Shown: positions 48,862 to 63,453, counted from the first letter of the stretch. The stretch: 64,000 nt of DNA from Methanobacteriota archaeon (GCA_017885655.1 JAFNFQ010000004.1:89373-153372); one strand, 5' to 3'. The notes: generated by a model not told the origin, from the letters alone. Translations and numbers: made by a program.

Positions 48862-48879
48862 AATCAAAAATGCATTGAG

Positions 48880-48975: not shown

Positions 48976-49087
48976 CGTGCTTGCTTAAAACTCTTTCGCT
49001 TGGAGTCAGCCTCTTGATAGCCTGATCTGGCAAGCGTCCGTGTGAGCGATTGATGGATATTTCCAAGAAGGTTCCACGCGCAAAAGC

Positions 49088-49492: not shown

Positions 49493-49937
49493 GATCAGTA
49501 TCTAAGTAAACGGCTCCTATGAGCGCCTCTAGCGTCTCGGCCGGAATTCTCGGTTGCACATCGAGGCTCTTATCTCTCTCCGACCCTCCCAGCCGAATGA
49601 GACCTCCGACTCCTTTTTCCAGTGCGAGTTTTGCTAACGTCGGTTTCTCTTCCATCTTTCTCCTTTCCACGGTAATTTTGTCCCCTGTCTCGAAGCCGGA
49701 GTGATATAGGATATCGGTTAGTGCCGCTTTGAGCAAAGCATCGCCCAAGGTCGCGAGCGCTGTCTGATCCTCACATTTCGGTTGCTGCAACGCCCGATCC
49801 TCGACAAACTTCTGACGGGTCAATGCACGGATGAGAATATCTGTGTTTCCGAATCGATGGCCGAGAATTCCTTCCTCTTCGTTCGCTTTGATGATCTTGT
49901 CCATTGGGTCTTCGAGTTTCAAGCAATCACCTCGCAC
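49425..49937 (-). CDS. RNase III-domain-like protein (170 aa, single catalytic-domain type)
   Basis: LATLGDALLKAALTDILY and ETLEALIGAVYLD resemble the RNase III signature (ERLEFLGDA ... EALIGAIYLD). Confidence 0.55.
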   Translation of the reverse strand: MRGDCLKLEDPMDKIIKANEEEGILGHRFGNTDILIRALTRQKFVEDRALQQPKCEDQTALATLGDALLKAALTDILYHSGFETGDKITVERRKMEEKPTLAKLALEKGVGGLIRLGGSERDKSLDVQPRIPAETLEALIGAVYLDTDRDFKKTEEFVAKLHGMQSPFID

Positions 49938-50150
49938 ATATGTCTGTTCATGCTAATCCTGTCGTGTTCCATTGCTATTCCCCTCGCCGACATGCAAATG
50001 CATGGGGTCCTATTTCAAAGATGGCTTGCGCATGATGGTGACATCCCGCCCACCGCTAGATCGTCCTGCTGAGTTAAGTGTCAATTTGAGAATGTCAATC
50101 GCGACCTTTATCAAACTCTATATACGCGACACTCACATTCGGTTAATCGA

Positions 50151-50633
50151 TTGCGCATGGCAGGAGTTACGTGCCTGACCTTGTCGGGGGACAACTACTG
50201 GGCGGTCGTCAACAGCGTCTGGTCTCTTCTGTATGAGGGGCTTTCAGTCCCTAGCCACCTCATTCTCATAACTAACGGCCGCCACAAAGATGTCGCGAAG
50301 AGGGCTTCCGATTCGTTGCAGACACTGCTTTCCTTCTATGGGATGACCAGCGTCCCCGAAATCATCGTCGTCCCCGAATATGACCTGCGCCAGGTACACG
50401 ACAAGCTGTTTGAAATCATGCAGAAGGCCAAGTCGGAGGGAGAAGTCGCTCTCAATATCACTCCGGCTAGAAAGTCGCTTGCCACAGTCGCCATGGTCGC
50501 CGCATGGGAAACTAAGGTGAATAGAATCCATTACGTTTACCTCAGAAGTCTCAAGGACGCCGATTGTCCCTATCCCCTCATAGCAAGGGATCTCCATGAA
50601 TTGCTCGACTTGAAGGAGCTCCGCCCGAAATGA
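50151..50633 (+). CDS. CARF-like Rossmann-fold sensor domain protein (degenerate ligand-site motif)
   Basis: VTCLTLSGD ... HLILITNG ... VALNITPARKSLATVAMVAAWE ... IHYVYL parallels the Csa3-like protein in this window (VHIATVGE ... LHINITGGTNIMASAALIAG ... VYYI), but with NITPA in place of NITGG. TATA CTATATAC at 50118-50125; likely ATG at 50157. Confidence 0.45.
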   Translation: MRMAGVTCLTLSGDNYWAVVNSVWSLLYEGLSVPSHLILITNGRHKDVAKRASDSLQTLLSFYGMTSVPEIIVVPEYDLRQVHDKLFEIMQKAKSEGEVALNITPARKSLATVAMVAAWETKVNRIHYVYLRSLKDADCPYPLIARDLHELLDLKELRPK

Positions 50634-51718
50634 GCACATGGTGCGCGCCCAGCAGATTCCTGATGGCGCTGGTCAACAGGATTTTTGGATATGGACGCGG
50701 GGTAATCACAATCAGATATCCACTCTATGGCACGGAGCTCTTCTCATTCGATTCATCATTCAAAGTCAAGAGCGCCTCATCCAAGCACAAGTTTTACGAA
50801 GCGCGAAAGGCTGCAACCTCATGGAGCAAGGAGCTGAGTCACGAAGCGCCCGAGTGGAACCAAGTGATGGACTCGTTCGTATCCTCTGGGACATTGAAGC
50901 CTCAGAACCTCGCCGATTTCGCTGTATGGGCCAGGAAGACACTGGAGGATAGGAGACGTCCGGAATTGGCAGCTCGCCCATTCTTCCTGGCAATCGATAC
51001 GAATGTAGCTTACAATCGCCTGTTCACGCGGCATTTTCCAATCGATGGCCCAAGCGGCGTCGTTAGAGCTCCAGATTTCAGATTCCTGTTATGCGATGTT
51101 GTCCGTCGAGAAGTCGACGAACAGATTAAACGAAAATATCGCGGGGAACTGAACCAAATATTCACCCATCCTGAACAGGAATCGATTCTCAAGGAAATCG
51201 GAGGACGCAATGTCCTCGTGGCGCGAAGGGCCAAGCTCGCTCAGAATGAAATCGACTACCTTGACAAAACGCTCAACGCCTTGACTGTTCCTTGCACGGA
51301 GTTCCCCTCAGACAAGGAAGATCGAGATATTCTCATCGCAAAGACCTACGGAGCATTCAGCCGGGACAGAAACGTGGACATAGCGCTGCTGACGATGGAC
51401 CAGAACATGGTGGACCACGCGAAGAATGCTCAGATTATGTCCTTCTCGTTAAGGGTCCCTGGAGCTTCGGAACTGGAGAAGGTCGAACTGCACTACTCCC
51501 TGTGGCATCTGCTCCACGATCTGGCCGTTGCGCTAGGCGTGATTGACATAGAGCCCTTCGGGACGCGGGTGTACGGCGAGTGGGCCGGAAAAACCACGTC
51601 TGACTACGGCGCAGAGAGAGTGAAGATAGTTCTCGACGACAAAGCTCCAATAGCGAATGAAGTGGTCAGGGACTTCCGGATTTGCGCGAAAGTCTTGGGA
51701 GTGTCAATTAGCGGCTGA
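50630..51718 (+). CDS. PIN-domain nuclease with N- and C-terminal extensions
   Basis: ATGA overlap with the CARF-like gene. PIN core PFFLAIDTNVAYN ... DVVRREVDEQ ... LLTMDQNMVDHA. Confidence 0.65.
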   Translation: MSTWCAPSRFLMALVNRIFGYGRGVITIRYPLYGTELFSFDSSFKVKSASSKHKFYEARKAATSWSKELSHEAPEWNQVMDSFVSSGTLKPQNLADFAVWARKTLEDRRRPELAARPFFLAIDTNVAYNRLFTRHFPIDGPSGVVRAPDFRFLLCDVVRREVDEQIKRKYRGELNQIFTHPEQESILKEIGGRNVLVARRAKLAQNEIDYLDKTLNALTVPCTEFPSDKEDRDILIAKTYGAFSRDRNVDIALLTMDQNMVDHAKNAQIMSFSLRVPGASELEKVELHYSLWHLLHDLAVALGVIDIEPFGTRVYGEWAGKTTSDYGAERVKIVLDDKAPIANEVVRDFRICAKVLGVSISG

Positions 51719-53230
51719 CGGTTTGCCATCGTGGGATTCAGCGACTATGTCGGCGCCTAGATCCTTCGCTCTCTGTGTGACACGTTTAGCATCATCAGGT
51801 GACTTGGCCAGGATGTATTTCTTCCCTTTGTGTTGGAATAGATCTACATCTTCTTCTGACTTCAACCTCTGGGCACCCTTTGGAAGAGTCGGAGGGAGCA
51901 CTGTCCAACGGTACACGATCTCGTGGGGCAATGATTGCACCTCCCCCTCATCGGGAATAGGGAATTCCTTGGGCTCGGTCTCCGCCATCGAGTCCAACGA
52001 TTTCGCTTGAATTGTGCCAAGGTCTTTCTCGATTGTCCCTCCTACGATTGCCGGCGACAGTCCCCTGCCGTCCCAGAGGAGGCATTCGCCGGTAACCTGG
52101 CCGCGGGGCAGGTTCTCCGTCAGCCTGAAGTGGAATGTCTTGGGCCATGACTCCATCAGGGTTCGAAGACTCTCGCACTGGGCGGGGGTGAGTTGGACAC
52201 CGGTCTCGAACCCGGTATCTAATCCGCGTGATTCTACATTGGCCGTCATCACGATGCCACGCATCTTGCCGCTCATCTTGCCTAACATGGCTTTCGCGTG
52301 CAGGTACCTGTGAGCATATACATCCGCGCCTCCGCGCATCAGATTCACGGCAGCCTCCATGTTCTTGACGCGGGGTCGCATGAAAATGTGCGTTCTCAGC
52401 CCACCCTTGACCCTCTTCAGCAGGTTTTGTGTGACTTCGTGTTTCATATCGAGATTATAGATTGACATCCAGAAATCATCCTGTGCACTCTCCACGAAGT
52501 CCAACAGAGATTGCCTGAGGGTTTGCATGTTCTGCGTCGTCACGGGCAGGTCAGACGGCAACACGGACTTTATCTCCATCCTACCGGACTTGCTGACCGG
52601 TTCTAGGCGTCCAGCTCGGAACAGCTCGTGTTCGCTCTCCTGCCAGAATCCGATTCTGAACTGTTCGAAAAGCGCTTTCGCAAGATCACCTTTCAAGGGG
52701 ATAACCACCTCAACGTTCCGTGTCAAGGCTTCTGTGGCAAGATTTGCGGTGGAAAGGAAGGCTGCCGTCTTGCCAGGACTCCGCGGATCGACGATCACAA
52801 ATTTCGAATGGAAGTGCCCTGCTGTGCGGACCAATACTCTGCCCGCCAATGCGTCCAATGTCGCCTTATGCTCCTCAACCTGCCTCTTAGCGAATTCCGA
52901 TTCCTGAGAAAGGTCTTTGAGCAGATGTTGCTCCGACATCGTCAGCACGTAACAGCGCACACCTCTTTTCGACGCCTCCAGGAGCGCGTTGCCGATATTC
53001 TGATCGTAGAACAGGAAAGAGCAAAGGCATACCGTTTCCATAGAAGAGCGTATGGCTTCGACGATCATCGAACGGGCGAACCCAGTTTCCTCGGTGGGCC
53101 ATATGGTGGCGTCGCGCCTCGGCGGCACTGCGGGCGATCCCATCTGAGGCGCCAAAGGAATCCATGCAATCCCTAGAGGATTTTCCCTGAAAGGCTTGAT
53201 CATCTTCTTCTCTAGCGCCCAAGTGCTCAT
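51704..53230 (-). CDS. Phospholipase-D-family nuclease (two HKD motifs), MkoB-like
   Basis: HFHSKFVIVD and HAKAMLGK HxK motifs. ATG at 53230 gives an ATGA overlap with the upstream gene; the track ORF from 53278 would overlap it by 52 nt. Confidence 0.8.
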   Translation of the reverse strand: MSTWALEKKMIKPFRENPLGIAWIPLAPQMGSPAVPPRRDATIWPTEETGFARSMIVEAIRSSMETVCLCSFLFYDQNIGNALLEASKRGVRCYVLTMSEQHLLKDLSQESEFAKRQVEEHKATLDALAGRVLVRTAGHFHSKFVIVDPRSPGKTAAFLSTANLATEALTRNVEVVIPLKGDLAKALFEQFRIGFWQESEHELFRAGRLEPVSKSGRMEIKSVLPSDLPVTTQNMQTLRQSLLDFVESAQDDFWMSIYNLDMKHEVTQNLLKRVKGGLRTHIFMRPRVKNMEAAVNLMRGGADVYAHRYLHAKAMLGKMSGKMRGIVMTANVESRGLDTGFETGVQLTPAQCESLRTLMESWPKTFHFRLTENLPRGQVTGECLLWDGRGLSPAIVGGTIEKDLGTIQAKSLDSMAETEPKEFPIPDEGEVQSLPHEIVYRWTVLPPTLPKGAQRLKSEEDVDLFQHKGKKYILAKSPDDAKRVTQRAKDLGADIVAESHDGKPSAAN

Positions 53231-54357
53231 CGAACCGCCTCCTGCTTCCCCAGGTCGGTTGGTGCCCGCAAGTACCAATATGCCGCTGGCAATAAATCAC
53301 CACGAAGGATTGCGCCATGCCGAATCTGATCGGCCATCTTATCATGTTCAGGCAATGTGATATCGAAATCTGGGAATCTGTCGGTGACACCGCGGACTAG
53401 TTTAGGATAGCTGTTTTCATCAAGGTATTCGGTGATTTCATGCTCGAGAACCCACTCCCCCCATTCTTGTGCGTCTTTGACCGTTCGCGGGGCAATTGGC
53501 ACGTCACGGATTTCTGTTTCATCAAACGTGCCGTATTCACTCACGGTCGGCCTATCTAACTTCAGTTGCCTCGACATCGACGTCTTCTCTGCATCCGACA
53601 CCTCATTGAAGCCGCATCGCAAGACCCCTCTTCGAGCATCCCATGCCTGGCGAGTGTCGCCCAACAACTCAAGGAAAATGCTTTCGTGGGAAACCTTGGG
53701 CGACTCCATATCCCACTTTGCGAAACCTTCTGCCATGAGCTCAGATTCTCTATCAGGGTGGATGATCCATTTCAGCGAAAGCCTCTCATTCTGTTCCACC
53801 TGCGAACGTACGCATCGTTCAGCGACTGACATGATGCGGATTCGCTCCCCTAATCGTGGAAGCATGATTGACTGGTCTTTCAATTCGACAAGCCATGGCG
53901 GCACCTGCTCGACCTCCTCAGATTGTTTGCCTTTCGATTCGAGCCTCCTCGCCGCCCTGCGCGCGTTCACGATGTCCTCCACCATGGGCTCGTGCGTGCC
54001 TTCCAAATCCAGGATTCGCTGAGGAACCAACGGGTCGGTCGTGCAAAGAATTCTATAACGTCCATGCTCTGGCAATGGCACAGTTTTTCGCTCAAGCGAT
54101 TCTCTCCCTAAAGGCGTGAGACTTCCATAATCGTCAAGTAGCCCGAGATCTCGGCAGCGCGAAATTACCGTATGGCCAACGGCTATCGGTCGATCAATGA
54201 GGAGGGAATTGCAGATGTCCTCTGCTCTGATTTGTCCTCCGAGTTCTTCCGCTCGCATCAGAACGGAGATGACATCCTTGCGCCTCTCCTCCCTCCCGAC
54301 TTCCATAACAACTTCATACGCGGTCATTGACACATTTCGACTAAGGATGATCTTCAT
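53227..54357 (-). CDS. Hypothetical protein (376 aa) embedded between the helicase and PLD genes
   Basis: 4-nt overlaps on both sides indicate co-translation within the operon. No recognisable motif; the N-terminus is possibly wHTH-like. Confidence 0.6.
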   Translation of the reverse strand: MKIILSRNVSMTAYEVVMEVGREERRKDVISVLMRAEELGGQIRAEDICNSLLIDRPIAVGHTVISRCRDLGLLDDYGSLTPLGRESLERKTVPLPEHGRYRILCTTDPLVPQRILDLEGTHEPMVEDIVNARRAARRLESKGKQSEEVEQVPPWLVELKDQSIMLPRLGERIRIMSVAERCVRSQVEQNERLSLKWIIHPDRESELMAEGFAKWDMESPKVSHESIFLELLGDTRQAWDARRGVLRCGFNEVSDAEKTSMSRQLKLDRPTVSEYGTFDETEIRDVPIAPRTVKDAQEWGEWVLEHEITEYLDENSYPKLVRGVTDRFPDFDITLPEHDKMADQIRHGAILRGDLLPAAYWYLRAPTDLGKQEAVR

Positions 54358-57002
54358 CTTGTGTTCGACCTCCCTTCTTTTGAACTGTATGAGAAGGCTA
54401 TTGGTATCTGGGTCCCGAGCCGCCGCAACAAATCAGATTTCCACTGGCGGGCGAAGCCCCTGCAATTCCCCACTAGGACCAATTGGAATCGCCCTCTCGT
54501 TATCGCGACGTTCAATCTATGAGGACTGTCGAGGAATCCAATGCTTTTTCTTCCGAGTGGATCCCGAACAAAGGATAAAAGCACGAAATCTGCCTCGTGC
54601 CCTTGGAATCGGTCAACAGATCCAAGAGAGACGCGGACCCTGCCATCGCCGGTCTTGAAATGCTGCCTGTTCCAAGACTTGAACAAGCTACGCAATCGTC
54701 GTCTCAGCTCGCTTTCTTGGGCGAGATAGAATGTCAGCACGGCAACATCCCACGGCAATATAGTGCCGTTCTTCTTCTTCGGATTGCTAGTCGCCCACGA
54801 AAGGAAGGTCTGGAGCTCATCCATTATAATGTCGGCCTCGGCAAAATTGCGGTTGGCGTTCGGATCTTCATTCGCTAGAACATGAATCCAAACGGATCGG
54901 GCGCCGTATCTTCCGATATTCAGAGACCGCTGTGAAGCAATGTTTGGTGGGTCTCTGAGGCTTTGGCCTTCGTAGATATTCTCACGCGGGAACCGGGAGA
55001 TATCAGGATGCATTCGATGCTGATACGTCAAGACCGCGTGTCGCTTGCTCAGAACTTCCGTGGGCAGCCCGTGGGTGATTGCCGTTGGCTCATACTTCAT
55101 CTGCTCCCTTTCGAATCCGACTTGAAGCATTTCCAGGATAGAAGGCAGTGCTACGCGCTTGATTGAATTGACTTCATATGAAATACGATTCATTTCTTTT
55201 TCATCGAGCCACTTTGGCAGGAGCGCGTCGACATCTGCGGCGTACCGTTTCGCCTCTTCAGGCCGACGGCGGAGTTCAAACTGACGAATGAGGCGCCATC
55301 CGATTTCCGAAGCCCACGTTTTCTCCTCGCGTTCCATCTGTTCCTCATTGTCGGCCTCCTCGGGATGACGCACTCGCCAGTACGCCATTCTTCGCTCGAG
55401 GCGTGACGTGATAACCGTCTCGGAGAGAACTTGAACATTCAGAGGCAATAAACGACCGATGACGGTCAAATCCTTCGTGTCAGCGACCATCAGGTCGGCC
55501 CAAAGTGGCCCCAGGTCTCCACTATCGATCGTCTGCGGCGACAATTGTACCGTAGGTATGCCCAGCGCTTCCGCTTGTTTTACTGCCCATTCCCTGACCT
55601 TCGGGTCGGGGTCGCAAAGGAGAAAGCTGCGTTTCTCGCCCTTCTTGCGACGCGCCCGCACGAAGGCCTTGAACACTGGTAGTATCGCGCGGCTTTCCCT
55701 CTCGTCCAGGATGCCCGCAAGATTGGCCTCGACCTCGACATTGTTCACGAAGGGTGATAGCTGATTGACATCTCCAACGAGGACCCATTTCTTCGCATAG
55801 AGTGCTGGAACCAAGAACTCCTGGAATGGGGTCTTGCTCGCCTCATCAACAATCAGTGTGTCAAACTCCGGGAACGCCGGCCGCACGAGACCCACCGCTA
55901 TGTCAGGATGTTTGAGAATGCCTATGGTGGTCCCGCATACGAGATTCGCAGAATCCAGGATCAATCGCTGAAGAACCTTTTCGCCATCTTCTTCCAAAGC
56001 TTTCAGCAGGTAGTCCTGTGCGGGGGTCCTCCGCGCAATGCCTTTGAGTTTCTTCTTGAGTTCGTTCCTCTCAGTCTCGAGCCGGTTCTTGAGCAGAAGA
56101 TGAGAGACTTGCTCGGAAACGTCGAAATCCCTCGAGGCAATTCGCACCGCGACGACGGACCTTTCCATCCACCCCAGATCTACAAGCTTCTCCAAGACAT
56201 TGTCAACCGCCACATGCGTGGATGCGCAAAGAAGGACTCGATGTCCCAGCTCGATTTCTTGAAGAATCAACTCGCAGATGGTGACGGTTTTTCCGCTGCC
56301 GGGGGGCCCTTCAAGAATCGCGAAATCCGGGGTGCCAAGGGCTTTCTCCACAAAGTCACGTTGTTCATCGACTCCCGCAAAGTCGTCATCGACCAGTATT
56401 CTCCAGTTAATGGGGGAGACAGCCGCAACTGGTTCCCATCGAACATTGTTGTAGCCTTCGGCCAATGAAATCAAAGGCCTGTGAGCAGGGTGAGGACTCT
56501 GCCGAATATTCTCCAGGGCCATTAGCTCGCGATAGAGGTTCCATGTATTGGGGTGAATGTAGACTTTCTCTGCAGCTGGCAATCGGGACACACAGATCGC
56601 GTCAATTTCGGGCTCCCTGTCAAGCACCTCAATATCGCCGCGTCCTGCCTTTGCTTTATCGGAAATGAAATCCGCATCGAAGAACTCATCGAACACTTCT
56701 TCGGGAGTCTCAGCGTCGATTTCTCTCAGACGAATCCAAAATCCCATCGCACTCGTTTTTCGTTGTGCCGGTTGGTGAATGTTTTGTTCGGAGGGCATCG
56801 ATCCATTGGCGGTTCGATTTCGGATAATCTCTGGGTCAATAGGTCCCTCCCAGGCGAGCATCAATGCCTGCGCTTCAATCCTGTACTTTGCGCTGCTAAG
56901 ATACTTGTAGAACGGTCGGTAGTTGTTGTAGGTTCTTTCCAAGAGAACCTGAATGTCTGTGTTAGGAACTCTTGGCATATTAGCAAAGTGCAGGTTCAGC
57001 AT
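54354..57002 (-). CDS. Superfamily-1 Upf1/DNA2-like helicase (COG1112-type, MkoA-like) with about 230-aa N-terminal domain
   Basis: Walker A GPPGSGKTV, Walker B LIVDEASKT, motif VI VAITRGRFQLVLVG. Confidence 0.85.
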   Translation of the reverse strand: MLNLHFANMPRVPNTDIQVLLERTYNNYRPFYKYLSSAKYRIEAQALMLAWEGPIDPEIIRNRTANGSMPSEQNIHQPAQRKTSAMGFWIRLREIDAETPEEVFDEFFDADFISDKAKAGRGDIEVLDREPEIDAICVSRLPAAEKVYIHPNTWNLYRELMALENIRQSPHPAHRPLISLAEGYNNVRWEPVAAVSPINWRILVDDDFAGVDEQRDFVEKALGTPDFAILEGPPGSGKTVTICELILQEIELGHRVLLCASTHVAVDNVLEKLVDLGWMERSVVAVRIASRDFDVSEQVSHLLLKNRLETERNELKKKLKGIARRTPAQDYLLKALEEDGEKVLQRLILDSANLVCGTTIGILKHPDIAVGLVRPAFPEFDTLIVDEASKTPFQEFLVPALYAKKWVLVGDVNQLSPFVNNVEVEANLAGILDERESRAILPVFKAFVRARRKKGEKRSFLLCDPDPKVREWAVKQAEALGIPTVQLSPQTIDSGDLGPLWADLMVADTKDLTVIGRLLPLNVQVLSETVITSRLERRMAYWRVRHPEEADNEEQMEREEKTWASEIGWRLIRQFELRRRPEEAKRYAADVDALLPKWLDEKEMNRISYEVNSIKRVALPSILEMLQVGFEREQMKYEPTAITHGLPTEVLSKRHAVLTYQHRMHPDISRFPRENIYEGQSLRDPPNIASQRSLNIGRYGARSVWIHVLANEDPNANRNFAEADIIMDELQTFLSWATSNPKKKNGTILPWDVAVLTFYLAQESELRRRLRSLFKSWNRQHFKTGDGRVRVSLGSVDRFQGHEADFVLLSFVRDPLGRKSIGFLDSPHRLNVAITRGRFQLVLVGNCRGFARQWKSDLLRRLGTQIPIAFSYSSKEGRSNTR

Positions 57003-57901
57003 CCAATTTCCCTTCCCCTTTCCCTCAACACTCCGAAGATCTCCTTGTCATCAGCGATGACCTTCCCCCCGGGACGCCATTGGTAATGGCCGCCTCGAAC
57101 AAGAAACTTTCGCCTATCCCATCCCGCTCTCTGAATAGCATCTTGCACTCCGACCTCGAGAATCGACGGTCCGAACCCATAACTGCCACCCGTATTCTGG
57201 AAGAATCGACCGAGTGGGTCCATCATGAGGTATGAGTCTGTCATGGCCCGATTATCCTCTTTGACTGGATTGAGGCATTCATGGCGAGCGACGAAGGCTT
57301 CGAACTGCCCATTCATAGTGGCCAAGTCTGCGAAGCTGTCATCGTTCTCTCCTTTTATTGGGAGCATTTGAAAGACCTTCCACCGCCGAGGTTTCAGTTC
57401 GGCAACGAAGGATCGCATGTCTTCTCCCCAATTCATTGAGGTGACAACAGTGTTGACTTTGAATCGTATGCCGAATTCATGAATCCGCTTTGCCACTTCG
57501 CGAACAAGTGCGACATGATTTCCATCACCCCGCCCGAGAGCTTTTTCCACTTGCTCTGATGCGCTGTCAACGCTCAGAGCGATCCAGTCGACTAGGTCTG
57601 CAATCGTGCTGAGATAGGTCTTATTCAGCCGCGTCCCGTTCGATATGATCATCGTTGTCAGGCCAGCTTCTTTTGAAGCCTGAAGTACCTCTCGGAGGTG
57701 GGAACACAATGTCGGCTCCCCTCCCGCCAAGGTCAACTTTTCCGTCCCCGCTTTGCGGAGAATCTCCGGAATCTTCACCGCCTGATTCATCGAAAGCGGG
57801 GTACAGATTCCCTTGAAATGGGCGAAGCAGAATCTGCAGCGATAGTTGCACCATGGCCATATATGCCAATTCACCGAAACCGGTTCCACGCCCCCATTCA
57901 T
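56996..57901 (-). CDS. Prokaryotic viperin (pVip) radical-SAM enzyme
   Basis: Residue-level correspondence with animal viperin: PVSVNWHIWPWCNYRCRFCF vs [20 protein letters not shown]; AGGEP vs SGGEPF; ISNGTRL vs VSNGSLI; FKVNTVV vs FKINSVI; RWKVFQMLPIKGEN vs RWKVFQCLLIEGEN; MTDSYLMMD vs MKDSYLILD; ILEVGVQDAIQRAGWDRRKFLVRGGHYQW vs [29 protein letters not shown]. Confidence 0.9.
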   Translation of the reverse strand: MNGGVEPVSVNWHIWPWCNYRCRFCFAHFKGICTPLSMNQAVKIPEILRKAGTEKLTLAGGEPTLCSHLREVLQASKEAGLTTMIISNGTRLNKTYLSTIADLVDWIALSVDSASEQVEKALGRGDGNHVALVREVAKRIHEFGIRFKVNTVVTSMNWGEDMRSFVAELKPRRWKVFQMLPIKGENDDSFADLATMNGQFEAFVARHECLNPVKEDNRAMTDSYLMMDPLGRFFQNTGGSYGFGPSILEVGVQDAIQRAGWDRRKFLVRGGHYQWRPGGKVIADDKEIFGVLRERGREIGC

Positions 57902-57946
57902 CTAGATTGTCAGGTATTGCAGACACCTATAGCGGTTCTCTTTTAT

Positions 57947-57967
57947 AGTAAAATGCTGCATTTTACT
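57947..57967. promoter_or_regulatory. Perfect 10-bp inverted repeat (AGTAAAATGC-T-GCATTTTACT) in the pVip/csa3 divergent promoter; candidate Csa3 operator
   Basis: Lies between the TTTTATAG TATA-like box (57941-57948) and the csa3-like ATG (57973), i.e. over the expected leaderless transcription start. Confidence 0.4.
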
Positions 57968-57972
57968 GACGG

Positions 57973-58617
57973 ATGTGCGCAGTCCATATAGCCACGGTCG
58001 GCGAAACGCCCGAGCCAATCATAGAAGGCGTCAGACACCACAGCGTCGATTTGCAGGTGCTCCTGCATAGTCGCGAGACAAAGAGTGTTGCCGTCGAAAT
58101 TCGCAGGAGGATTAAGAGCCTTATTGGCAGAGACATCTGTGAGCTGAAGGAGATCGATCCGTTCGACATGCGCGACATCATGACTGCCATCGTCTCATAT
58201 CGAAAAAGGATGCCCGCGGAGGTGCTCCACATCAACATAACGGGCGGAACCAACATCATGGCATCTGCGGCCCTGATAGCGGGATTCGTGGTCGGGGCAC
58301 GCGTTTACTATATCCGGAAGGATCCAAACCCGAAGATACCGCTCGCTGATCGTATCATCGAGCTTCCGGTTCCCCGCGTTTCTCTTGAGAGCCTCGACGA
58401 GAATCATCGCAGGATTCTGAAATTGATACATAATCGAGGAACGGAGTTCGCTCCGGCCAACAGCGTGATTGCGACCGAATTGGGGATGTCGCGGCAGCTC
58501 GTGAGCTACCACCTCAGGAGGCTCGAGAGGGCGGGCTTATTGCACCTGACACTTGAAGGTCGAAACAAGATCGCGAGTCTGACGCCCGAAGGAGACCTCT
58601 ACGCTGAGATTGTTTGA
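57973..58617 (+). CDS. csa3: Csa3-like transcriptional regulator (CARF domain + winged HTH)
   Basis: CARF motifs VHIATVGETPEP and LHINITGGTNIMASAALIAGFVVGARVYYI; C-terminal wHTH RILKLIHNRG ... IATELGMSRQLVSYHLRRLERAGLL. Confidence 0.8.
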   Translation: MCAVHIATVGETPEPIIEGVRHHSVDLQVLLHSRETKSVAVEIRRRIKSLIGRDICELKEIDPFDMRDIMTAIVSYRKRMPAEVLHINITGGTNIMASAALIAGFVVGARVYYIRKDPNPKIPLADRIIELPVPRVSLESLDENHRRILKLIHNRGTEFAPANSVIATELGMSRQLVSYHLRRLERAGLLHLTLEGRNKIASLTPEGDLYAEIV

Positions 58618-59255
58618 TCCAGAATGCGCCCCATAACCGAAGCCGAATCACAAGGACGCGATGGCAAGATTCTTGTCCACCCATTAACATGGCGCACCAA
58701 CGAGGCCGTCATATGACCAAGAATCCGGCGAAAATGAGGGAGGACTTCAAGCCCGATAGGATACGATTTCTGATGGTCGGAGAATCACCGCCCAGGAAAG
58801 GGTTCTTTTATGATCCTGAAAGCTCATTGAAGTCGTTGTCTCGCGGTACCGCTGAAGTCTTTGAGGAAGTATATGGTGAGGACTATGGCAAAGGAGAAGA
58901 CCAGAAGCTCCTGTTCCTCAATAGCTTCCAATCTAAAGGGTTCTATCTTCACGATTTCTACGCTGTGAGAGGCAAGAAAGTAAGAAGAAGACGTTGGGAC
59001 GATATATACGAAGGAATCGACGAGCTCAGGTCATTGCTGGAAGTCAGTAAGGCCGACATTGGACGTGTCGTGACGGTGTGGCCCGAGATCTCGGACATCG
59101 TGGATGAAGCTTTGTGGAAGGAGGAGATTAAGGCACTGCACAGGATCGTCCCATTCCCCTCCAATGTGAGCATGAAGGTCTACAAGTGGAGGATCTCGGA
59201 GATCGTGAAGGAGTTCGAAGGTCGTCCGCGTTCGCATTCTCGCAACGATCGATGA
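58614..59255 (+). CDS. Hypothetical protein, ATGA-coupled to csa3 (alternative ATG at 58713); possible uracil-DNA-glycosylase-superfamily fold
   Basis: FLMVGESPP and IVPFPSNVS loosely resemble UDG motif A (GE.PG) and motif B (HPSP.N). Weak assignment. Confidence 0.4.
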   Translation: MIQNAPHNRSRITRTRWQDSCPPINMAHQRGRHMTKNPAKMREDFKPDRIRFLMVGESPPRKGFFYDPESSLKSLSRGTAEVFEEVYGEDYGKGEDQKLLFLNSFQSKGFYLHDFYAVRGKKVRRRRWDDIYEGIDELRSLLEVSKADIGRVVTVWPEISDIVDEALWKEEIKALHRIVPFPSNVSMKVYKWRISEIVKEFEGRPRSHSRNDR

Positions 59256-59423
59256 CGGAGTGACTGAGGCAAAATCCGCGATTTCTGCATGATCATCTCC
59301 TTCCCCCTGATGCGGATACGCCCGGATAGGACTTGACTTCATCGCAAGAAATACCGTCGAACTGTCTCCAACCACGTTGATGTTCCTCCATTTCCACACA
59401 TCAATGTAGGAGGTGTGATTCGA

Positions 59424-59585
59424 TTGAAGCCTATCAACGTAGACGACAAGAACGTGTGGTTCGAGCGCGGGGTGAGGTGCCTGGAGAGACACGAGTACGG
59501 TCAGGCGGTGGACCGCTTCAAGAGGGCGCGCGTGCCGCTCCCATGGGAGGTGCTGAGGAGAAGGAGCGGGAAGATGAAGTACTAA
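59424..59585 (+). CDS. Possible small ORF (53 aa, TTG start) upstream of NYN paralog 2
   Basis: GGAGGTG 9 nt upstream of the TTG. Product KPINVDDKNVWFERGVRCLERHEYGQAVDRFKRARVPLPWEVLRRRSGKMKY. Speculative. Confidence 0.2.
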   Translation: MKPINVDDKNVWFERGVRCLERHEYGQAVDRFKRARVPLPWEVLRRRSGKMKY

Positions 59586-59635
59586 GCTGGAGGCTCTGAT
59601 GCGAATGGTGAATATCATCAAGGGATAATCGGCCC

Positions 59636-60199
59636 ATGCAACATTCGATGCCTGAGAGATTGATGATTTTCATCGATGGTTCAAATCTCTTTCACACCGG
59701 TCGACTGTACGGGAAGCATTACCGAATCGAGGACCTATGCAACGAACTGTCCGCGGACAGACAACTCGTCCGGACCTACTACTATGGTTCCATTCCCACT
59801 GGCGGAGACGACGACAAGGTGGAGAAGCAGAAAGGATTCCATATGAGGCTGGAATATGGGGGAATCAATGTCAGCATCATTCCGCTGAAGACACGGGAGG
59901 TCAATTTTAAATGTCCAAAGTGTGGGGCAAAATCGGCTTTCAGCCGCAATGTCGAGAAGGGGGTGGACGTCGCGCTCGTCACTGACATGCTTGCTTTCGG
60001 TTTCCGCGATGGCTACGATGTGGCCTTGCTGGTCGCGGGCGACCTGGATTACATCAGAGCGATTGAGGAAGTGAAGAGGATACCAAAAAGGGTCGAGATA
60101 GCATTCTTCGAGAGCATCCAGGCGATCAGCGGCGCACTGAAGAGGAAAGCGGATCGCTTCATTCCTCTGGAACCGATAATCAACAAGATCGGCACCTAG
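59636..60199 (+). CDS. NYN-domain protein, paralog 2, with an inserted CPKCG zinc-ribbon
   Basis: MIFIDGSNLF ... YYYGS ... KCPKCG ... EKGVDVALVTDML ... LVAGDLDYIRAIEEV. Confidence 0.8.
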   Translation: MQHSMPERLMIFIDGSNLFHTGRLYGKHYRIEDLCNELSADRQLVRTYYYGSIPTGGDDDKVEKQKGFHMRLEYGGINVSIIPLKTREVNFKCPKCGAKSAFSRNVEKGVDVALVTDMLAFGFRDGYDVALLVAGDLDYIRAIEEVKRIPKRVEIAFFESIQAISGALKRKADRFIPLEPIINKIGT

Positions 60200-60419
60200 T
60201 GTTTAGACGTAGTTATTTCACCAGGTCGCCGAGGAGATACCGAAAGCGTCTCCCCGCCAGGGCATGTTGGTTCCGCCGACCTGTTAAGTTGTTTCACCAC
60301 CCTTATGACTCCCGCGTATCTTAAGCTTTTTCCTGGGGCTATCTCGAAGGGGCAGTACATGATTCTCGAATAGGCATCGTTGGCGGCGATGACACGGTCC
60401 GTGATCTGTTGACTTGGTA

Positions 60420-60515
60420 AAGGTTTTTTACCAGACGACCGACAAGCCATCCCCGCGAACACTTGTCGTCAAGGCATTAGCCGTCGTCTGGAGAGCTATT
60501 TTCAGACACCTCATT
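60420..60515. repeat. Conserved hairpin element (copy 2) downstream of NYN paralog 2
   Basis: TTTTTT-ACCAGACGACCG-(loop with CTTGTCGT)-CCGTCGTCTGG-AGAGCTATTTTC. See 48880-48975. Confidence 0.55.
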
Positions 60516-60677
60516 CGTTTCGGACTTTGAAGCCTTTATGCTTCAATTCATCAAGGTGCGCCGCACACGATGTCGCGAACCGAATTGAGTACACGGTCGG
60601 AGGAATCCCTGATGTCTTTCTCCGTGATGTTCAAGCGAGATCGCATCCGCATTTCTTTCCGCGCGAACGGGTTGGAC

Positions 60678-61187
60678 TTAGGGTACCCAGATGCATTCTT
60701 CGACTGTGACGAATTCGAAGGTCGCCGATTCCGGATTGCCGTCCTTGCGTATCCGCGAGAGGAGCGTTTCGAAGTCCTCATCGGAGTCGATTACCTTCCG
60801 ATTCTTCACTGCGATGTAGCGGTCGCCGAACTTCTTGCGCAGGGTCAACATGGACCTATCGATCCATGCCGAGTTCCGCTGCTCTCTTCGAATCGAGCGG
60901 AGTATCTCTGCCTTGTTCACGTTCATTACAGGCTCTTCATGGCCTGCTATGGAGATAAAGCCTTCTCGTCCGATTATGGTCGGTCCGAGTTGCAACGCAC
61001 ATCTACGGCGAATCGGGGTGAGTATTGAGAAGGGGCGTTGGCTTGAGTCTCTTTTCATGAGTGAGAGGGCGAATTTTCGACCCCCTACATGGTTCAAGAT
61101 AGTCTTGCCTATCCTATATTCTCTCATTGATTCAAGAATCAATAGAGCAGGATTGGGGTATGGACCATGTGCCTCGCACCTACTCAA
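60678..61187 (-). CDS. Hypothetical protein; true gene may be only the C-terminal roughly 80 aa
   Basis: The C-terminal part (MNVNKAEILRSI ... DRYIAVKNRKVIDSDEDFETLLSRI ... FEFV) looks like a small self-contained domain. The long N-terminal extension is low-complexity. Confidence 0.4.
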   Translation of the reverse strand: MSRCEAHGPYPNPALLILESMREYRIGKTILNHVGGRKFALSLMKRDSSQRPFSILTPIRRRCALQLGPTIIGREGFISIAGHEEPVMNVNKAEILRSIRREQRNSAWIDRSMLTLRKKFGDRYIAVKNRKVIDSDEDFETLLSRIRKDGNPESATFEFVTVEECIWVP

Positions 61188-61316
61188 TCCCGCCAGAGAG
61201 TGCGAATATCCTTTCGATCATTCCGCCCGAGACTCCCATGGGTTCTGGACAAGTCCAGTGATGTCTCAGACGGATGGGCGATAGCATTTTAGCGAGGCAT
61301 GCCATTCATTATTTAA

Positions 61317-61664
61317 ATGGAAGCGCAGGGGGGCGCGACGCTCCGTCACGCAAAGACGCATCTGAGCCGCGAGGGACTCGCATGCGTTATTGTCGATTAC
61401 TTGGTTCTAAGAAAGGAGAGTACCAAGCCAGGATGCACCGCGTACGACATCGCTAAAAATGCACCTAGGCTGAGGACCACACAGCGTCAGCAGCGAATCG
61501 AGGAGATTCTAAGGGATCTCGAGACACAGGGAATCGTCCACTGCGAGCGCTACGAGAAAGCAAGCTACTTCTCGATTACTGATGATGGGATGAAGTGGTA
61601 CAAGGATATCGTCAAACGTTTCTATGATGTGCTCGGGCCGATTTATCCTGGATTTCAGGACTGA
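61317..61664 (+). CDS. PadR-like winged-helix transcriptional regulator
   Basis: VIVDYLVLRKESTKPGCTAYDIAKNA ... RQQRIEEILRDLETQGIVHCE ... YFSITDDG follows the PadR pattern (hGYel ... G.lYp.L.rLe..G). Confidence 0.5.
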   Translation: MEAQGGATLRHAKTHLSREGLACVIVDYLVLRKESTKPGCTAYDIAKNAPRLRTTQRQQRIEEILRDLETQGIVHCERYEKASYFSITDDGMKWYKDIVKRFYDVLGPIYPGFQD

Positions 61665-61754
61665 CTCGCAACGGATTTCGCTTGAATATTGCCCCGGATA
61701 TTATTCGGTCGGGTTTAGATCAGTCAGCTGTGTTCAGATTCCTTAGAAGGGGCT

Positions 61755-62501
61755 TCATCTGACCCAGATTGAAGTGAATTTGCCGTCACTATGCGTGAGG
61801 AGTGCATTGAAGACATTCTTTGTGGGCAATCCCTCCTCACTCCGAGTCCATTCGACCGCGTCGGCCTCGAAACCGGCTTTGGACACAGCCAATATCACGA
61901 AAGGTCCCCTGCCACGTCTTCTTGCAACGTCCATGACATCCGCTTTGAACTCGACAAGTTCCGCCATGGTCGTCGGACTTTGCCCTTCGAACCTTCTTAT
62001 GGCTGCCAATCGTGCTCCGAATTCAGCATAGATATTGAAACGGTGCGAGCCAGTCTTTCCAAGGACTTCAGCGTCGAAAGTGACTTTAGCTTTTGAGAAC
62101 TCGGGATGAAGCTCCGTGAGCTTGGCCATTATCTGCTTATCCAAATCCTCGCTCGTAGTCGGCAACATCTCGAATTTGACTTTGAACCAAAGAGGGTAGA
62201 AGCATTCAAAGAAGTGCTCTAAAGGTTTATCGAACTTCATGGACGGGGCAATCACAAAGAGTCCGAAAAAGCCCAGGATTATTCCGGCCAACCCGGAAAT
62301 AAGAACAGCCAAATCCGTAAACGGCCCCCACACTTCCGGTTCAAGGACCATTGCCAGAATCCATAGAATCAATGTGATTATCATGACGAGGCTGGATACT
62401 TTCGCCCAGAGTACCAAAGTTCTGAGCTTCTGTCGCTGGCTAAACAGGGTTTCTGACGCTTCCAAGAGAGTAAGTACCGGAGGAGTGCCTGCTTTATTCA
62501 C
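61755..62501 (-). CDS. Membrane protein (two TM helices) with a C-terminal cytoplasmic domain of unknown function (possibly nuclease-like)
   Basis: TM segments LVMIITLILWILAMV and LAVLISGLAGIILGFFGLFVIA; C-terminal D..E.K-like residues (DAEVLGK ... ELVEFKAD). Confidence 0.5.
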   Translation of the reverse strand: MNKAGTPPVLTLLEASETLFSQRQKLRTLVLWAKVSSLVMIITLILWILAMVLEPEVWGPFTDLAVLISGLAGIILGFFGLFVIAPSMKFDKPLEHFFECFYPLWFKVKFEMLPTTSEDLDKQIMAKLTELHPEFSKAKVTFDAEVLGKTGSHRFNIYAEFGARLAAIRRFEGQSPTTMAELVEFKADVMDVARRRGRGPFVILAVSKAGFEADAVEWTRSEEGLPTKNVFNALLTHSDGKFTSIWVR

Positions 62502-62661
62502 GATGCTGAATATGAAATGGCGACATATAGCCGGTACTGGAATTTCGTTCTAGTTCCACGACGCGGAAATCATCATACGTGAACTGATGTTCTCCTGAAT
62601 CGTATTTTCGTTCGTTGCCAACCCTAGTATCTCTTCATGCCTCTATGTCTCGGTGTAAAAA

Positions 62662-63294
62662 ATGCGAGACACGGAAGCAGATTCGGAAATAGGTGTGAGC
62701 GCGGATGTGGGAACGTCAGCCAAGAGAGTGGCCGTCTTCGTTGACGTGCCAAACCTCTGGGTCGTTGCGAAAGACAATGGTTTCGATTTTGACACGAAAC
62801 CAGTGATCGACGCAGCAAAGACCTACGGTCGGGTCGTTCTCGCAAAGGCATATGCCGCCATCCAGTGGGGGCGGCCAGTGAATTCTGGGGTGATAGACCT
62901 CGAGCATGTCGGCTTCGAGGCCGTGCATAGATGCGTGTCGCCGAAAGATGGCAATGGAAAGAAAGACATCGACTCCCTACTCTTGACGGATATGATCGTG
63001 GCCGCGTACGAAAACGTGGCCGACACGTTCCTGCTTGCAAGTGGAGACTCAGACTACGTTCCAGCCATTCGGACGATCAGACGGCTTGGCAAGAAGGTCG
63101 TGGTCATGTCATACCCCGCCCAGATGTCCCCGCGGCTGCTTGCAATCGCAGACGAGGCCATATCGATGATCCCCCCCTGCGAAGTGAAGGATCCCGGGAA
63201 CGAAAGTTGTGCAATGCCCCCCGCCATCCGGGATTCGACGTGGAGTCGGGACTGTGGGGTCCCTGTTGATGGCTCAGCAGGAGTCAAAGGATAG
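62662..63294 (+). CDS. NYN-domain protein, paralog 3
   Basis: VAVFVDVPNLW ... KDIDSLLLTDMIVAAY ... LLASGDSDYVPAIRTIRRLGKKVVV. Confidence 0.75.
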   Translation: MRDTEADSEIGVSADVGTSAKRVAVFVDVPNLWVVAKDNGFDFDTKPVIDAAKTYGRVVLAKAYAAIQWGRPVNSGVIDLEHVGFEAVHRCVSPKDGNGKKDIDSLLLTDMIVAAYENVADTFLLASGDSDYVPAIRTIRRLGKKVVVMSYPAQMSPRLLAIADEAISMIPPCEVKDPGNESCAMPPAIRDSTWSRDCGVPVDGSAGVKG

Positions 63295-63306
63295 GGGGGA
63301 AATATC

Positions 63307-63447: not shown

Positions 63448-63453
63448 ACTGAG

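Follow-up and report, generated by a model that had tools for sequence, protein, structure and literature searches.

It is established viperin biochemistry, also for the prokaryotic viperins (pVips), that 3'-deoxy-3',4'-didehydro-nucleoside triphosphates (ddhNTPs) are chain terminators for viral polymerases. The partners that the searchable literature describes for pVips comprise nucleotide kinases and, for archaeal members, a TPR protein. Two further described systems resemble the remaining genes of the locus considered here. On the one hand, Mokosh type I (MkoA + MkoB; Millman et al. 2022, 10.1101/2022.05.11.491447) has a COG1112/Upf1-like helicase and a separate PLD nuclease. On the other hand, in the CoCoNuT cnuH-cnuE modules of type III-C (Bell et al. 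2024, PMC11090510), a Upf1-like SF1 helicase is followed by a wHTH partner and two PLD domains, frequently together with a CARF-domain transcription regulator that is RtcR-like in bacteria. Archaea are reported to have almost no CoCoNuTs, viperin is not among the genes reported for these modules, and RNA targeting has been predicted for the cnuHE relatives (PMC11090510). In the literature open to search, we did not find described a partnership of viperin with a helicase/X/PLD operon and a CARF regulator.

We have analysed a 64-kb stretch of archaeal DNA (hereafter the window), in which a pVip gene is the first gene of an overlapping same-strand operon in the order pVip, Upf1-like SF1 helicase, X and PLD nuclease. 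The features of this locus are as follows.

50151 to 50633, plus strand: small CARF-domain protein of 160 aa, the first half of a split CARF/PIN-like pair.
50630 to 51718, plus strand: protein of 362 aa matching the C-terminal part of CARF_PIN; its gene overlaps the CARF gene by 4 nt.
51704 to 53230, minus strand: PLD-family nuclease of 508 aa, counted from the Met at 53230, with two HKD halves and an ATGA overlap with X.
53227 to 54357, minus strand: protein X, 376 aa, with a 4-nt overlap with the helicase gene.
54354 to 57002, minus strand: Upf1-like SF1 helicase of 882 aa, whose ATG lies 7 nt inside the pVip end (ATGCTGA overlap).
56996 to 57901, minus strand: pVip, an ATG-started ORF for a viperin-family radical-SAM enzyme of 301 aa, operon gene 1.
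57940 to 57967, no strand: candidate operator and shared promoter, within the 71 bp between the two divergent genes.
57973 to 58617, plus strand: Csa3-like CARF-wHTH regulator of 214 aa, divergent from pVip.

The same-strand overlaps measure 7 nt between pVip and helicase, 4 nt between helicase and X, and 4 nt between X and PLD, and the four genes would form a translationally coupled operon. The helicase carries Pfam AAA_11/AAA_12, its best PDB matches are Upf1/NAM7 (1.7e-31), IGHMBP2, DNA2 and Sen1, and its motifs I (GPPGSGKT), II (DEAS) and V/VI are intact in all lineages described below. The PLD protein, for which the maximal ORF begins at TTG 53278, matches Pfam PLDc_2 (5.9e-19) and keeps both HxK...(S/T)xN motifs from archaea to bacteria. 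Protein X has a wHTH domain (about residues 27-90) within a beta-rich fold, for which no structural relative was detectable. Apart from the wHTH, X is confidently predicted to be a novel fold, and it is a putative DNA- or RNA-binding protein. Its family, with 605 clusters at 50% identity, is widespread and has no name.

These genes showed similarities with both Mokosh and CoCoNuT, but a distinct arrangement. Like Mokosh, the operon encodes a COG1112/Upf1-like helicase and a separate PLD nuclease, and the sole PDB match of the latter is MitoPLD/Zucchini (4ggj, E 0.003), Zucchini/PLD6 being the eukaryotic MkoB analogue. However, the PADLOC MkoA match of the helicase (4e-83, 278 bits) covers the helicase core only (profile positions 618-1081 of 1112), and no kinase Pfam domain, corresponding to the Ser/Thr-kinase domain of MkoA, was found in the 882-aa protein. 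The MkoB match of the nuclease is likewise weak (4e-4, 17.7 bits) and lower than that of the DrmC models (2e-15). Unlike Mokosh, the operon has an obligatory third gene, X, between helicase and PLD, and CARF regulators and viperin are attached to it. The likeness to CoCoNuT, in the Upf1-like helicase, wHTH and two PLD domains and the CARF-domain regulator, is one of domain content. Here the wHTH (X) and the two PLD domains are on two proteins, whereas CoCoNuT has a single CnuE. We found no McrB-like NxD GTPase (CnuB) or McrC-like protein (CnuC) in the cassette or in the flanking ORFs scanned in the window, and none among the called genes of five related loci (L006, L009, L017, L019 and L021). 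We consider that the operon is a new arrangement, related to the Mokosh and CoCoNuT cnuHE modules.

The regulator gene divergent from pVip encodes Pfam HFX_2341_N (residues 4-115) and HTH_20 (143-192) domains, and matches PADLOC CARF3 (9.1e-49) and the CARF structure 8bao (2.3e-7). As in Csa3 and RtcR-type regulators, a CARF sensor is joined to a DNA-binding domain, and the gene lies beside its presumed target operon. Unlike those regulators, it has neither type III CRISPR-Cas genes nor Rtc genes of RNA repair nearby, and it scores below the TIGR01884 Csa3 cutoff (40.6 bits against 60.2). Neither a cyclic-oligoadenylate synthase (Cas10 or similar) nor a CRISPR array was found in the 64-kb window. 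Between the two genes, a perfect 10-nt inverted repeat, AGTAAAATGC-a-GCATTTTACT, at 57947..57967 abuts a TATA box, TATAAAAG, at 57940..57947. This box precedes the pVip ATG by about 38 nt and is about 28 nt away from the regulator ATG. Within the window the repeat is found a single time, against 0 expected (100 shuffles). The pattern TAAAAT-N5-7-TTTTAC together with TATAAAAG is kept in lineages A, B, C and D/E, in which the coding sequences are 43-70% identical. The inverted repeat is likely the operator of the CARF-wHTH regulator, and the promoter is likely bidirectional and shared with the operon.

At the other end, the CARF/PIN-like pair converges on the operon 3' end, and the 3' end of the 362-aa gene overlaps that of PLD by 15 nt. 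The small CARF protein matches the CARF part of the PADLOC CARF_m1 model (3.4e-23). The 362-aa protein had no Pfam or PDB match, and matches PADLOC PDLC01973 (7.2e-17) at profile positions 217-454, which is the non-CARF part of CARF_m1 'CARF_PIN'. Both are conserved with the cassette, at 79%, 63% and 33% identity for the CARF protein and 78%, 65% and 33% for its partner in L006, L009 and L016, respectively. The preliminary description had called the viperin archaeal, and this was borne out by genes on the contig for an exosome subunit (Rrp4), a RIO kinase, a PIN protein of the Nob1 type and a protein with the TPD motif.

The cassette recurs in five diverged archaeal lineages (A to E), all found in metagenome assemblies, with helicases that are 41-82% identical. 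The lineages are as follows.

Lineage A: the window and L003-5.
Lineage B: L006-8.
Lineage C: L009.
Lineage D: L014 and L001 (Thermoplasmatota MAG).
Lineage E: L016 and L020 (Thorarchaeota MAG).

Wherever the upstream region of a cassette pVip is covered by the contig (lineages A-E), a CARF-wHTH gene adjoins pVip; the contig of L016 breaks off within pVip. Beside the solo pVips of L010, L012, L013, L002 and the M. hollandica plasmid, no CARF-wHTH gene was present. The trio of helicase, X and PLD is also found where pVip is absent: in Cuniculiplasma and one other archaeon, with NYN and CARF genes in front, and on plasmids of Vibrio and Pontibrevibacter, where the regulator is RtcR-like (CARF-AAA-HTH). 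Among the trio loci examined in archaea and bacterial plasmids, a CARF-domain regulator was always nearby where the flanks sufficed. In the viperin-less Cuniculiplasma version, an NYN RNase fills the front slot of pVip. L014 and L020 are 98% identical in CARF and 87% in pVip, yet 42% in helicase and 31% in X, whereas L014 and L006 are 82%, 78% and 80% identical in helicase, X and PLD, yet 57% in pVip and 42% in CARF. On these values, the CARF and viperin 'front' has moved by recombination, as one block, onto different 'backs'. Most likely, helicase, X and PLD constitute an older and independent module, and the pair of viperin and CARF regulator is a clade-specific front module in the slot taken by the NYN RNase in other versions. 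In the pVip tree, the cassette-linked viperins did not form one clade (0/200 bootstraps), and the deep nodes were poorly supported.

Considering these results, we regard as probable a model in which a competent viperin is the first cistron of a CARF-switched four-gene operon that delivers two arms together. The CARF regulator would sense a nucleotide or RNA-end ligand and turn the operon on. In the first arm, viperin would make 3'-deoxy-3',4'-didehydro-NTPs from ribonucleoside triphosphates by means of a [4Fe-4S] cluster and SAM, which would give a small-molecule block of viral nucleic-acid synthesis. In the second arm, an ATP-driven complex of helicase, X and PLD would degrade viral RNA or DNA. 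We infer that the two arms may be functionally coupled. Also, as solo pVips and viperin-less trios both exist, each arm is presumably able to work alone. Further observations that weigh against the model are that no cyclic-oligoadenylate synthase or CRISPR array was found in the window, that the cassette was met in only five lineages, that pVip and helicase genes lie apart in lineage D, and that the pVip tree does not unite the cassette-linked viperins.

A closer, mechanistic coupling is conceivable but unlikely. According to this reading, transcripts or replication intermediates terminated by 3'-ddh nucleotides, or stalled polymerases, would be recognised by helicase and X and destroyed by PLD, in an RNA-surveillance-like step analogous to that of Upf1 in nonsense-mediated decay. 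The pVip and helicase genes appear translationally coupled, the helicase belongs with Upf1, IGHMBP2 and Sen1, a clade whose substrates are RNA or ssDNA, and the sole solved relative of the PLD protein, Zucchini/MitoPLD, is an ssRNA nuclease. In addition, the NYN RNase in the same slot of viperin-less versions and a second cassette of NYN, helicase and X, which lies 5 kb off in the same genome, suggest that the 'front' gene is RNA-directed, and the cnuHE relatives in CoCoNuT are predicted to target RNA (PMC11090510). However, both arms are found independently in other genomes, and the C-terminal tail of pVip, which varies among lineages, counts against such coupling. The free recombination of front and back modules argues against a tight co-adaptation of interacting surfaces. 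We likewise hold it as unlikely that viperin belongs, as an integral effector, to an immune system of the RNA-surveillance type under CARF control, in which ddhNTPs would be made on the signal sensed by the regulator, and 3'-ddh-ended viral transcripts or replication intermediates, or stalled polymerases, would be the specific substrates of helicase-X and a Zucchini-like PLD.

It is quite improbable that a stand-alone pVip merely lies beside an unrelated helicase/PLD system, with neither shared regulation nor shared function. In favour of this reading, pVip lies in a defence island of low GC (0.52 vs 0.59), which also encodes SoFic, two NYN proteins and a protein resembling RNase III, solo pVips are the rule elsewhere, the trio also exists without pVip, and in lineage D (L014, L001) the pVip and helicase genes are about 177 nt apart. 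Against this, the 7-nt stop/start overlap is kept in three lineages (it is also present in L006 and L009), and in a fourth (L016) the genes abut without a gap. Gene order and orientation are the same in all five lineages despite otherwise different flanking genes. Moreover, the CARF-wHTH and pVip pair was never without the trio in the loci examined, and the cassette architecture was retained after the recombination of front and back.

The first gene of this operon had been described as a prokaryotic viperin, and the profile searches agree. The NCBIfam model NF038283 'viperin_w_prok' scores 285.2 bits (E 4.7e-85, cutoff 180) and aligns residues 8-270 with positions 2-280 of its 281 positions. 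The PADLOC pVip models match at E 2.3e-83 and 2.5e-82, and Pfam Radical_SAM at 80.7 bits. Mouse viperin (5vsl) is the best solved relative (E 1.6e-53, residues 6-277), and viperins or viperin-like enzymes account for all of the nine best structural matches. The closest named relatives are from Thermoplasmatota and Asgard MAGs, and every annotated plasmid homologue is named viperin family protein. The length of 301 aa, called typical of pVips, lies inside the range of the best 120 relatives (264-353 aa). That the protein is a MoaA-like or other radical-SAM enzyme (a maturase of cofactors or peptides) which resembles viperin only superficially in its motifs is effectively refuted, since the generic models that match the N-terminal half (MoaA 57, StsB 64 and NrdG 50 bits) are far under their cutoffs (for MoaA, 57.1 bits against 284 in TIGR02666 and 53.7 against 325 in TIGR02668) and confined to the SAM core, whereas the viperin model is over its cutoff, the viperin-specific C-terminal substrate-binding residues Y224, R269, GG270-271 and Y273 are present, and the protein lacks SPASM and twitch domains. 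On these matches, the ORF is a genuine archaeal viperin-family member. The gene alone is ordinary, in a family that is well documented and automatically annotated.

The preliminary description also emphasised a near motif-for-motif match to animal viperin. All of the motifs that it quoted are present (CNYRCRFC 18-25, GGEP 60-63, ISNGTRL 86-92, RWKVFQ 173-178 and VRGGHYQW 268-275), but both base-selecting positions differ, and the identity to mouse viperin, 39.5% over 271 positions, equals the median among 116 prokaryotic relatives, whose values range from 35 to 44%. Accordingly, the likeness to animal viperin is a property of the family and not of this gene. With 189.4 bits against the cutoff of 450 in the animal equivalog model TIGR04278, the protein is, judged by its score, not an orthologue of animal viperin.

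In its active site, pVip agrees with both animal viperin (RSAD2; TIGR04278; PDB 5vsl/6q2p) and other pVips (NF038283; Bernheim et al. 2021), among them those of Asgard and further archaea (Leao et al. 2024, PMC11291487; Shomar et al. 2023, 10.1101/2023.09.13.557418). The Fe-S cysteines Cys18/22/25 and G60-G61-E62-P63 align with C84/C88/C91 and G125-P128 of mouse viperin, and the RGGxYxW C-terminal block is shared. In a residue map against the mouse enzyme, 26/26 catalytic, SAM-binding and triphosphate-binding positions are conserved, including the equivalents of N77, H79, K120, S180, R194, K220, N222, R245, K247, Y302, R347 and Y351. The NTP-binding set of pVip consists of N11, H13, K55, K148, N150, R173, K175, Y224, R269, G270, G271 and Y273, and its mouse counterparts, including those of the C-terminal extension, are N77, H79, K120, K220, N222, R245, K247, Y302, R347, GG348-349 and Y351. 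Going by the known biochemistry of viperins and pVips, pVip should be a catalytically competent viperin, a predicted synthase of 3'-deoxy-3',4'-didehydro-NTPs from NTPs. Among the substrate residues, from which the choice of nucleotide was to be read, the catalytic and triphosphate positions are conserved, and the base pocket has Asn236/Tyr241 in place of the CTP-selecting Cys314/Lys319 of the mouse. Asn is found at this pocket in 101/116 relatives and Tyr in 60/116. An Asn pocket is the 'promiscuous' type of prokaryotic and Asgard viperins, which is reported to take several NTPs, a rule that comes from one preprint and structural models (Shomar et al., bioRxiv 10.1101/2023.09.13.557418). The pocket of pVip would thus be of the type that accepts several NTPs, and CTP selectivity is not predicted.

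Beyond the active site, pVip shares with prokaryotic viperins the length class and the defence-island setting. It differs from them in being operonic with helicase, X and PLD, in its paired CARF-wHTH regulator and in having no adjacent kinase; no nucleotide kinase was fused to or near pVip in the neighbours scanned, and the sole thymidylate kinase (16500..17117) is 40 kb off. It differs from animal viperin in that its genomic partner is not CMPK2 and in that it has no N-terminal amphipathic/ER-targeting extension, since the protein starts 5 residues ahead of the conserved core. Expression is probably inducible in both, by interferon in animals and putatively by the CARF regulator here.

In summary, the noteworthy part of this locus is a viperin that is built into a helicase/nuclease operon under a ligand-sensing transcription factor. 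As far as the genes indicate, the cassette offers a concrete example of a prokaryotic viperin whose expression would be regulated ('inducible'), and a case in which chain-terminator chemical defence would be co-deployed with enzymatic nucleic-acid degradation. The X family marks the helicase-X-PLD module in archaea and on bacterial plasmids. If the two arms were mechanistically coupled, three parts with eukaryotic counterparts (viperin, a Upf1-like helicase and a Zucchini-like PLD) would be in one archaeal pathway.

An ORF running exactly from 56996 to 57901 on the minus strand, as the preliminary description had claimed, was found; it starts with ATG, encodes 301 aa, and contains every motif quoted there, namely CNYRCRFC (residues 18-25), GGEP (60-63), ISNGTRL (86-92), RWKVFQ (173-178), and VRGGHYQW (268-275). 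The NCBIfam model NF038283 ('viperin family antiviral radical SAM protein', cutoff 180 bits) matched this protein (pVip) at 285.2 bits (E 4.7e-85) in a nearly full-length alignment, whereas the MoaA models, with cutoffs of 284-325, reached only 54-57 bits and the matches of other radical-SAM families covered the N-terminal SAM core only. The pVip models of PADLOC matched at E 2e-83, all nine best solved structures were viperins or viperin-like enzymes (top, mouse viperin 5vsl, E 1.6e-53, residues 6-277), and every annotated plasmid homologue was labelled a viperin family protein. Based on these results, the viperin assignment holds, and the scores rule out a MoaA or other radical-SAM identity. 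For the identical viperin in three other loci, L003 (10001..10795, equal to window 56996..57790), L004, and L005, the JGI/Logan gene calls begin at Met38 (264 aa), which deletes the CxxxCxxC Fe-S motif. Since both the ORF itself and the gene call of NCBI have 301 aa, these database copies are N-terminally truncated by mis-annotation.

With regard to animal viperin, the TIGR04278 model (cutoff 450 bits) reached 189 bits, the N-terminal extension is absent, and pVip, judged from its sequence, is no orthologue of the animal enzyme. The near motif-for-motif match that had been described is correct insofar as the motifs are present, but it is a trait of the family and nothing peculiar to this gene: the identity of pVip to mouse viperin, 39.5%, is the median of its relatives (range 35-44%).

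Viperin from mouse and Nematostella was aligned with 116 prokaryotic relatives, and the mouse numbering was transferred to the window protein. In this residue map, the Fe-S cysteines C18, C22, and C25 and the GGEP motif are conserved, as are, among the mapped positions, all SAM/triphosphate contacts (N11, H13, K55, S110, D112, R124, K148, N150, R173, K175, Q178, Y224, R269, G270, G271, and Y273). According to Shomar et al. (10.1101/2023.09.13.557418), base selectivity depends on two positions of the beta-8 loop, Cys314 and Lys319 of the mouse enzyme for CTP, and Asn at the first of them marks a 'promiscuous' pocket, the usual type in viperins from bacteria, archaea, and Asgard archaea. The C-terminal nucleotide-binding residues, which had been singled out for inspection, keep the triphosphate contacts and place Asn236 and Tyr241 at these two base-selecting positions (Asn in 101 and Tyr in 60 of the 116 relatives). 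Considering this pocket and the structural rule of the Shomar et al. preprint, pVip is predicted to be a synthase of 3'-deoxy-3',4'-didehydro-NTP (ddhNTP) without CTP selectivity. Taken alone, it is an ordinary new addition to the known viperin family, and its base pocket is predicted to be non-selective.

The pVip partners on record in the literature searched are kinases and a TPR protein. The kinase-associated pVip subtype is ruled out here by the absence of a nucleotide kinase nearby; a thymidylate kinase gene (16500..17117, plus strand), 40 kb from the viperin gene amid the housekeeping genes for PPDK, a HerA-like ATPase, and a PrsW protease, should not be taken for a viperin-associated kinase. 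The viperin gene is accompanied by the following genes.

54354..57002, minus strand: SF1 helicase, 882 aa, with its ATG 7 nt inside the viperin gene
53227..54357, minus strand: protein X, 376 aa, with a 4-nt overlap with the helicase gene
51704..53230, minus strand: PLD-family protein, 508 aa, with an ATGA overlap with X
57973..58617, plus strand (divergent): Csa3-like CARF-wHTH protein, 71 bp from pVip (PADLOC CARF3, 9e-49)

In addition, a gene for a 160-aa CARF protein overlaps the next gene, for a 362-aa protein resembling the non-CARF part of the PADLOC CARF_m1 'CARF_PIN' family, and the two run convergently towards the PLD gene. The helicase falls within the Upf1/IGHMBP2/DNA2/Sen1 clade and has intact motifs I, II, V, and VI, and its PADLOC MkoA match is restricted to the helicase core. 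The PLD protein has two HxK...(S/T)xN motifs, both kept from archaea to bacteria, and MitoPLD/Zucchini is its sole solved sequence relative. For X, word-index searches gave 4 clusters and then 8, and the family was revealed by an exhaustive HMMER search. Its AF2 model had a pLDDT of 94.9 with an 80-sequence alignment and 46 with 4 sequences, and fold searches with the model found no relative aside from wHTH. X matched only a contig already in the set in a metagenome scan and nothing in viral contigs (narrow alignment), and the phage collection held no relatives of X or pVip; accordingly, nothing indicates a virus-borne cassette.

The divergent intergenic region between pVip and the regulator contains a perfect inverted repeat with 10-nt arms (57947..57967); this repeat has one copy in the 64-kb window, where zero would be expected. 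It adjoins a TATAAAAG box (57940..57947), and the viperin ATG lies about 38 nt downstream of this box and the regulator ATG about 28 nt away from it. A TAAAAT-N5-7-TTTTAC core and TATAAAAG are kept in all lineages (A, B, C, and D/E, described below) at protein identities of 43-70%. This arrangement fits a bidirectional archaeal promoter with a candidate operator to which the CARF-wHTH protein would bind. Scans for bacterial sigma-70 promoters and intrinsic terminators gave results no better than chance, or below it, in keeping with an archaeal genome. No source of a cyclic-oligoadenylate ligand, whether a cyclase or a CRISPR array, was found in the window, and we reject a type III CRISPR setting of the CARF proteins, as neither array nor cas genes were seen there. 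By analogy with RtcR, an RNA-damage product could be the alternative CARF ligand (PMC11090510).

By exact-protein look-ups and tblastn, we found the cassette in identical order and orientation in five diverged lineages.

Lineages carrying the viperin cassette (percentages, identity to the window proteins)
Lineage A: the window and L003-5
Lineage B: L006-8; pVip 70%, helicase 79%, X 72%, PLD 72%
Lineage C: L009; pVip 62%, helicase 53%, X 46%, PLD 49%
Lineage D: L014 and L001 (Thermoplasmatota MAG); pVip 53-55%, helicase 77%
Lineage E: L016 and L020 (Thorarchaeota MAG); pVip 52-54%, helicase 41-44%, X 34%

The genes flanking the cassette vary from lineage to lineage; the 7-nt viperin/helicase overlap is common to lineages A, B, and C, and the CARF/PIN-like pair is retained in A, B, C, and E. 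Both the helicase and the CARF-wHTH gene are absent at the viperins of L010, L012, L013, and bacterial L002 and at the Methanomethylovorans plasmid pVip, and the solo viperins of L010, L012, and L013 are similar in divergence to the cassette viperins. A bootstrapped NJ viperin tree grouped A with B and D with E (100% each). Cassette-linked viperins formed one group excluding the solo ones in 0 of 200 bootstraps of this tree, whose deep nodes are weak; their monophyly is therefore not adopted, and we make no claim on single or multiple acquisition.

In the identity matrices, lineages D and E share the CARF regulator at 98% and viperin at 87%, with the helicase at 42% and X at 31%, whereas lineages D and B share the helicase at 82%, X at 78%, and PLD at 80%, with viperin at 57% and CARF at 42%. 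This mosaic indicates that regulator and viperin, the 'front', were swapped together as one unit onto another helicase-X-PLD 'back'. The exchange junction is a spacer of about 177 nt, present in lineage D only.

At every locus with readable context, X follows a Upf1-like helicase and precedes a PLD protein, whether viperin is present or not. In Cuniculiplasma (L017 and L018) and another archaeon (L019), an NYN-like RNase and a small CARF protein stand ahead of the helicase in the absence of viperin, with a Csa3-like gene divergent. On two bacterial plasmids, Vibrio aerogenes pLMG19650 (L021, NZ_AP024863.1) and a Pontibrevibacter plasmid (L022, NZ_CP049815.1), helicase-X-PLD is followed by an RtcR-like CARF-AAA+-HTH regulator, a sigma-54 activator (PADLOC 4.5e-209). 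RefSeq gives these genes only the labels 'DEAD/DEAH box helicase / hypothetical protein / phospholipase D-like / sigma 54-interacting transcriptional regulator', and the Vibrio plasmid carries cas1-cas2 about 3.5 kb away. A CARF-domain regulator accompanies helicase-X-PLD at all examined loci with enough flanking sequence. Given the same trio in viperin-less archaea and bacterial plasmids, helicase-X-PLD is an independent, widespread module and viperin is a clade-specific addition.

That the host is archaeal is shown by the contig, which codes for Rrp4 of the exosome, a RIO kinase, a PIN protein of the Nob1 type, a TPD-motif protein, and a HerA-like ATPase; of the named genomes with related genes, the closest are MAGs of Thermoplasmatota and Thorarchaeota. 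From about 48 kb to the window end, GC drops to about 0.52 from about 0.59, and the stretch is crowded with genes of RNA-directed or defence type; the following genes lie in or beside it.

46752..47921, minus strand: SoFic (PADLOC 7e-115), just upstream of the low-GC stretch
49425..49937, minus strand: RNase III-like protein
59636..60199, plus strand: NYN protein
60678..61187, minus strand: DUF5678 protein
62662..63294, plus strand: NYN protein of a second cassette
63454 to beyond the window: SF1 helicase of the second cassette, 1117 aa in L003 (PADLOC MkoA 4e-80)

Based on SoFic, the two NYN proteins, and the RNase III-like protein, the stretch (~48000..64000) is probably a defence island gained by horizontal transfer; neither an integrase nor a flanking tRNA was identified. 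The second, paralogous cassette, about 5 kb from the viperin gene, spans 62662..64000 and continues past the edge (L003 1..5129). Past its helicase, outside the window and less than 1 kb beyond the right edge, a protein of >329 aa matches the X-family HMM (8.4e-15). One genome thus has both viperin-fronted and NYN-fronted helicase-X modules.

Upstream of the island, a protein with a Fic domain, of the 'mobile mystery protein B' kind (41718..42656, minus strand), adjoins a nucleotidyltransferase (NTP_transf_2/Polbeta; 42801..43493, minus strand), and the two may form a defence or toxin-antitoxin-like pair. A local GC peak of 0.66-0.685 at 36-40 kb (35929..40209) holds a 960-aa ORF (35929..38811, plus strand) with no Pfam matches and many overlapping antisense ORFs, followed by a predicted cation/proton antiporter. 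A 2532-aa ORF (19038..26636, plus strand), with tRNA-Ala(CGC) immediately past it (26679..26751), and two ORFs of about 800-900 aa (30011..32359 and 33101..35761, both minus strand) have weak NosD-like or InlB B-repeat matches and presumably encode secreted or surface proteins.

Among known systems, Mokosh type I is defined by two genes, with MkoA bearing a kinase (10.1101/2022.05.11.491447). It likewise combines a Upf1-like helicase with a PLD nuclease, but the missing STK domain, the weak match of the PLD protein to MkoB, and the extra gene rule out membership. In terms of domain content, cnuH-cnuE of the CoCoNuTs is a closer conceptual relative of helicase-X-PLD, as a Upf1-like helicase is followed there by a wHTH-nuclease effector, with two PLD domains in type III-C; CoCoNuTs frequently have RtcR-like CARF regulators, are predicted to target RNA, and are reported to be nearly absent from archaea (PMC11090510). 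However, the defining McrB/McrC is missing from the cassette, which rules out membership, and its wHTH and PLD domains are on separate proteins. In the searchable literature, which includes few subscription journals, we found no viperin linked to a helicase/PLD operon, Mokosh, Upf1-like helicases, or CARF regulators.

Beyond sequence and structure homology, what we say on the function of the cassette is what we infer. A true mechanistic coupling of its two effector arms, viperin and helicase-X-PLD, via ddh-terminated nucleic acids is unlikely; each arm occurs apart from the other, in solo viperins and in viperin-less trios. Mere adjacency of the viperin and helicase/PLD genes is unlikely as well, given an order that is identical in five lineages with varying flanks. 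We consider that the two arms are probably co-regulated and deployed in parallel, which is the most likely mode of action. The noteworthy result lies beyond the coordinates of the preliminary description: a conserved, modular, CARF-associated operon that unites viperin, a Upf1-like helicase, a novel wHTH protein, and a two-HKD PLD nuclease.
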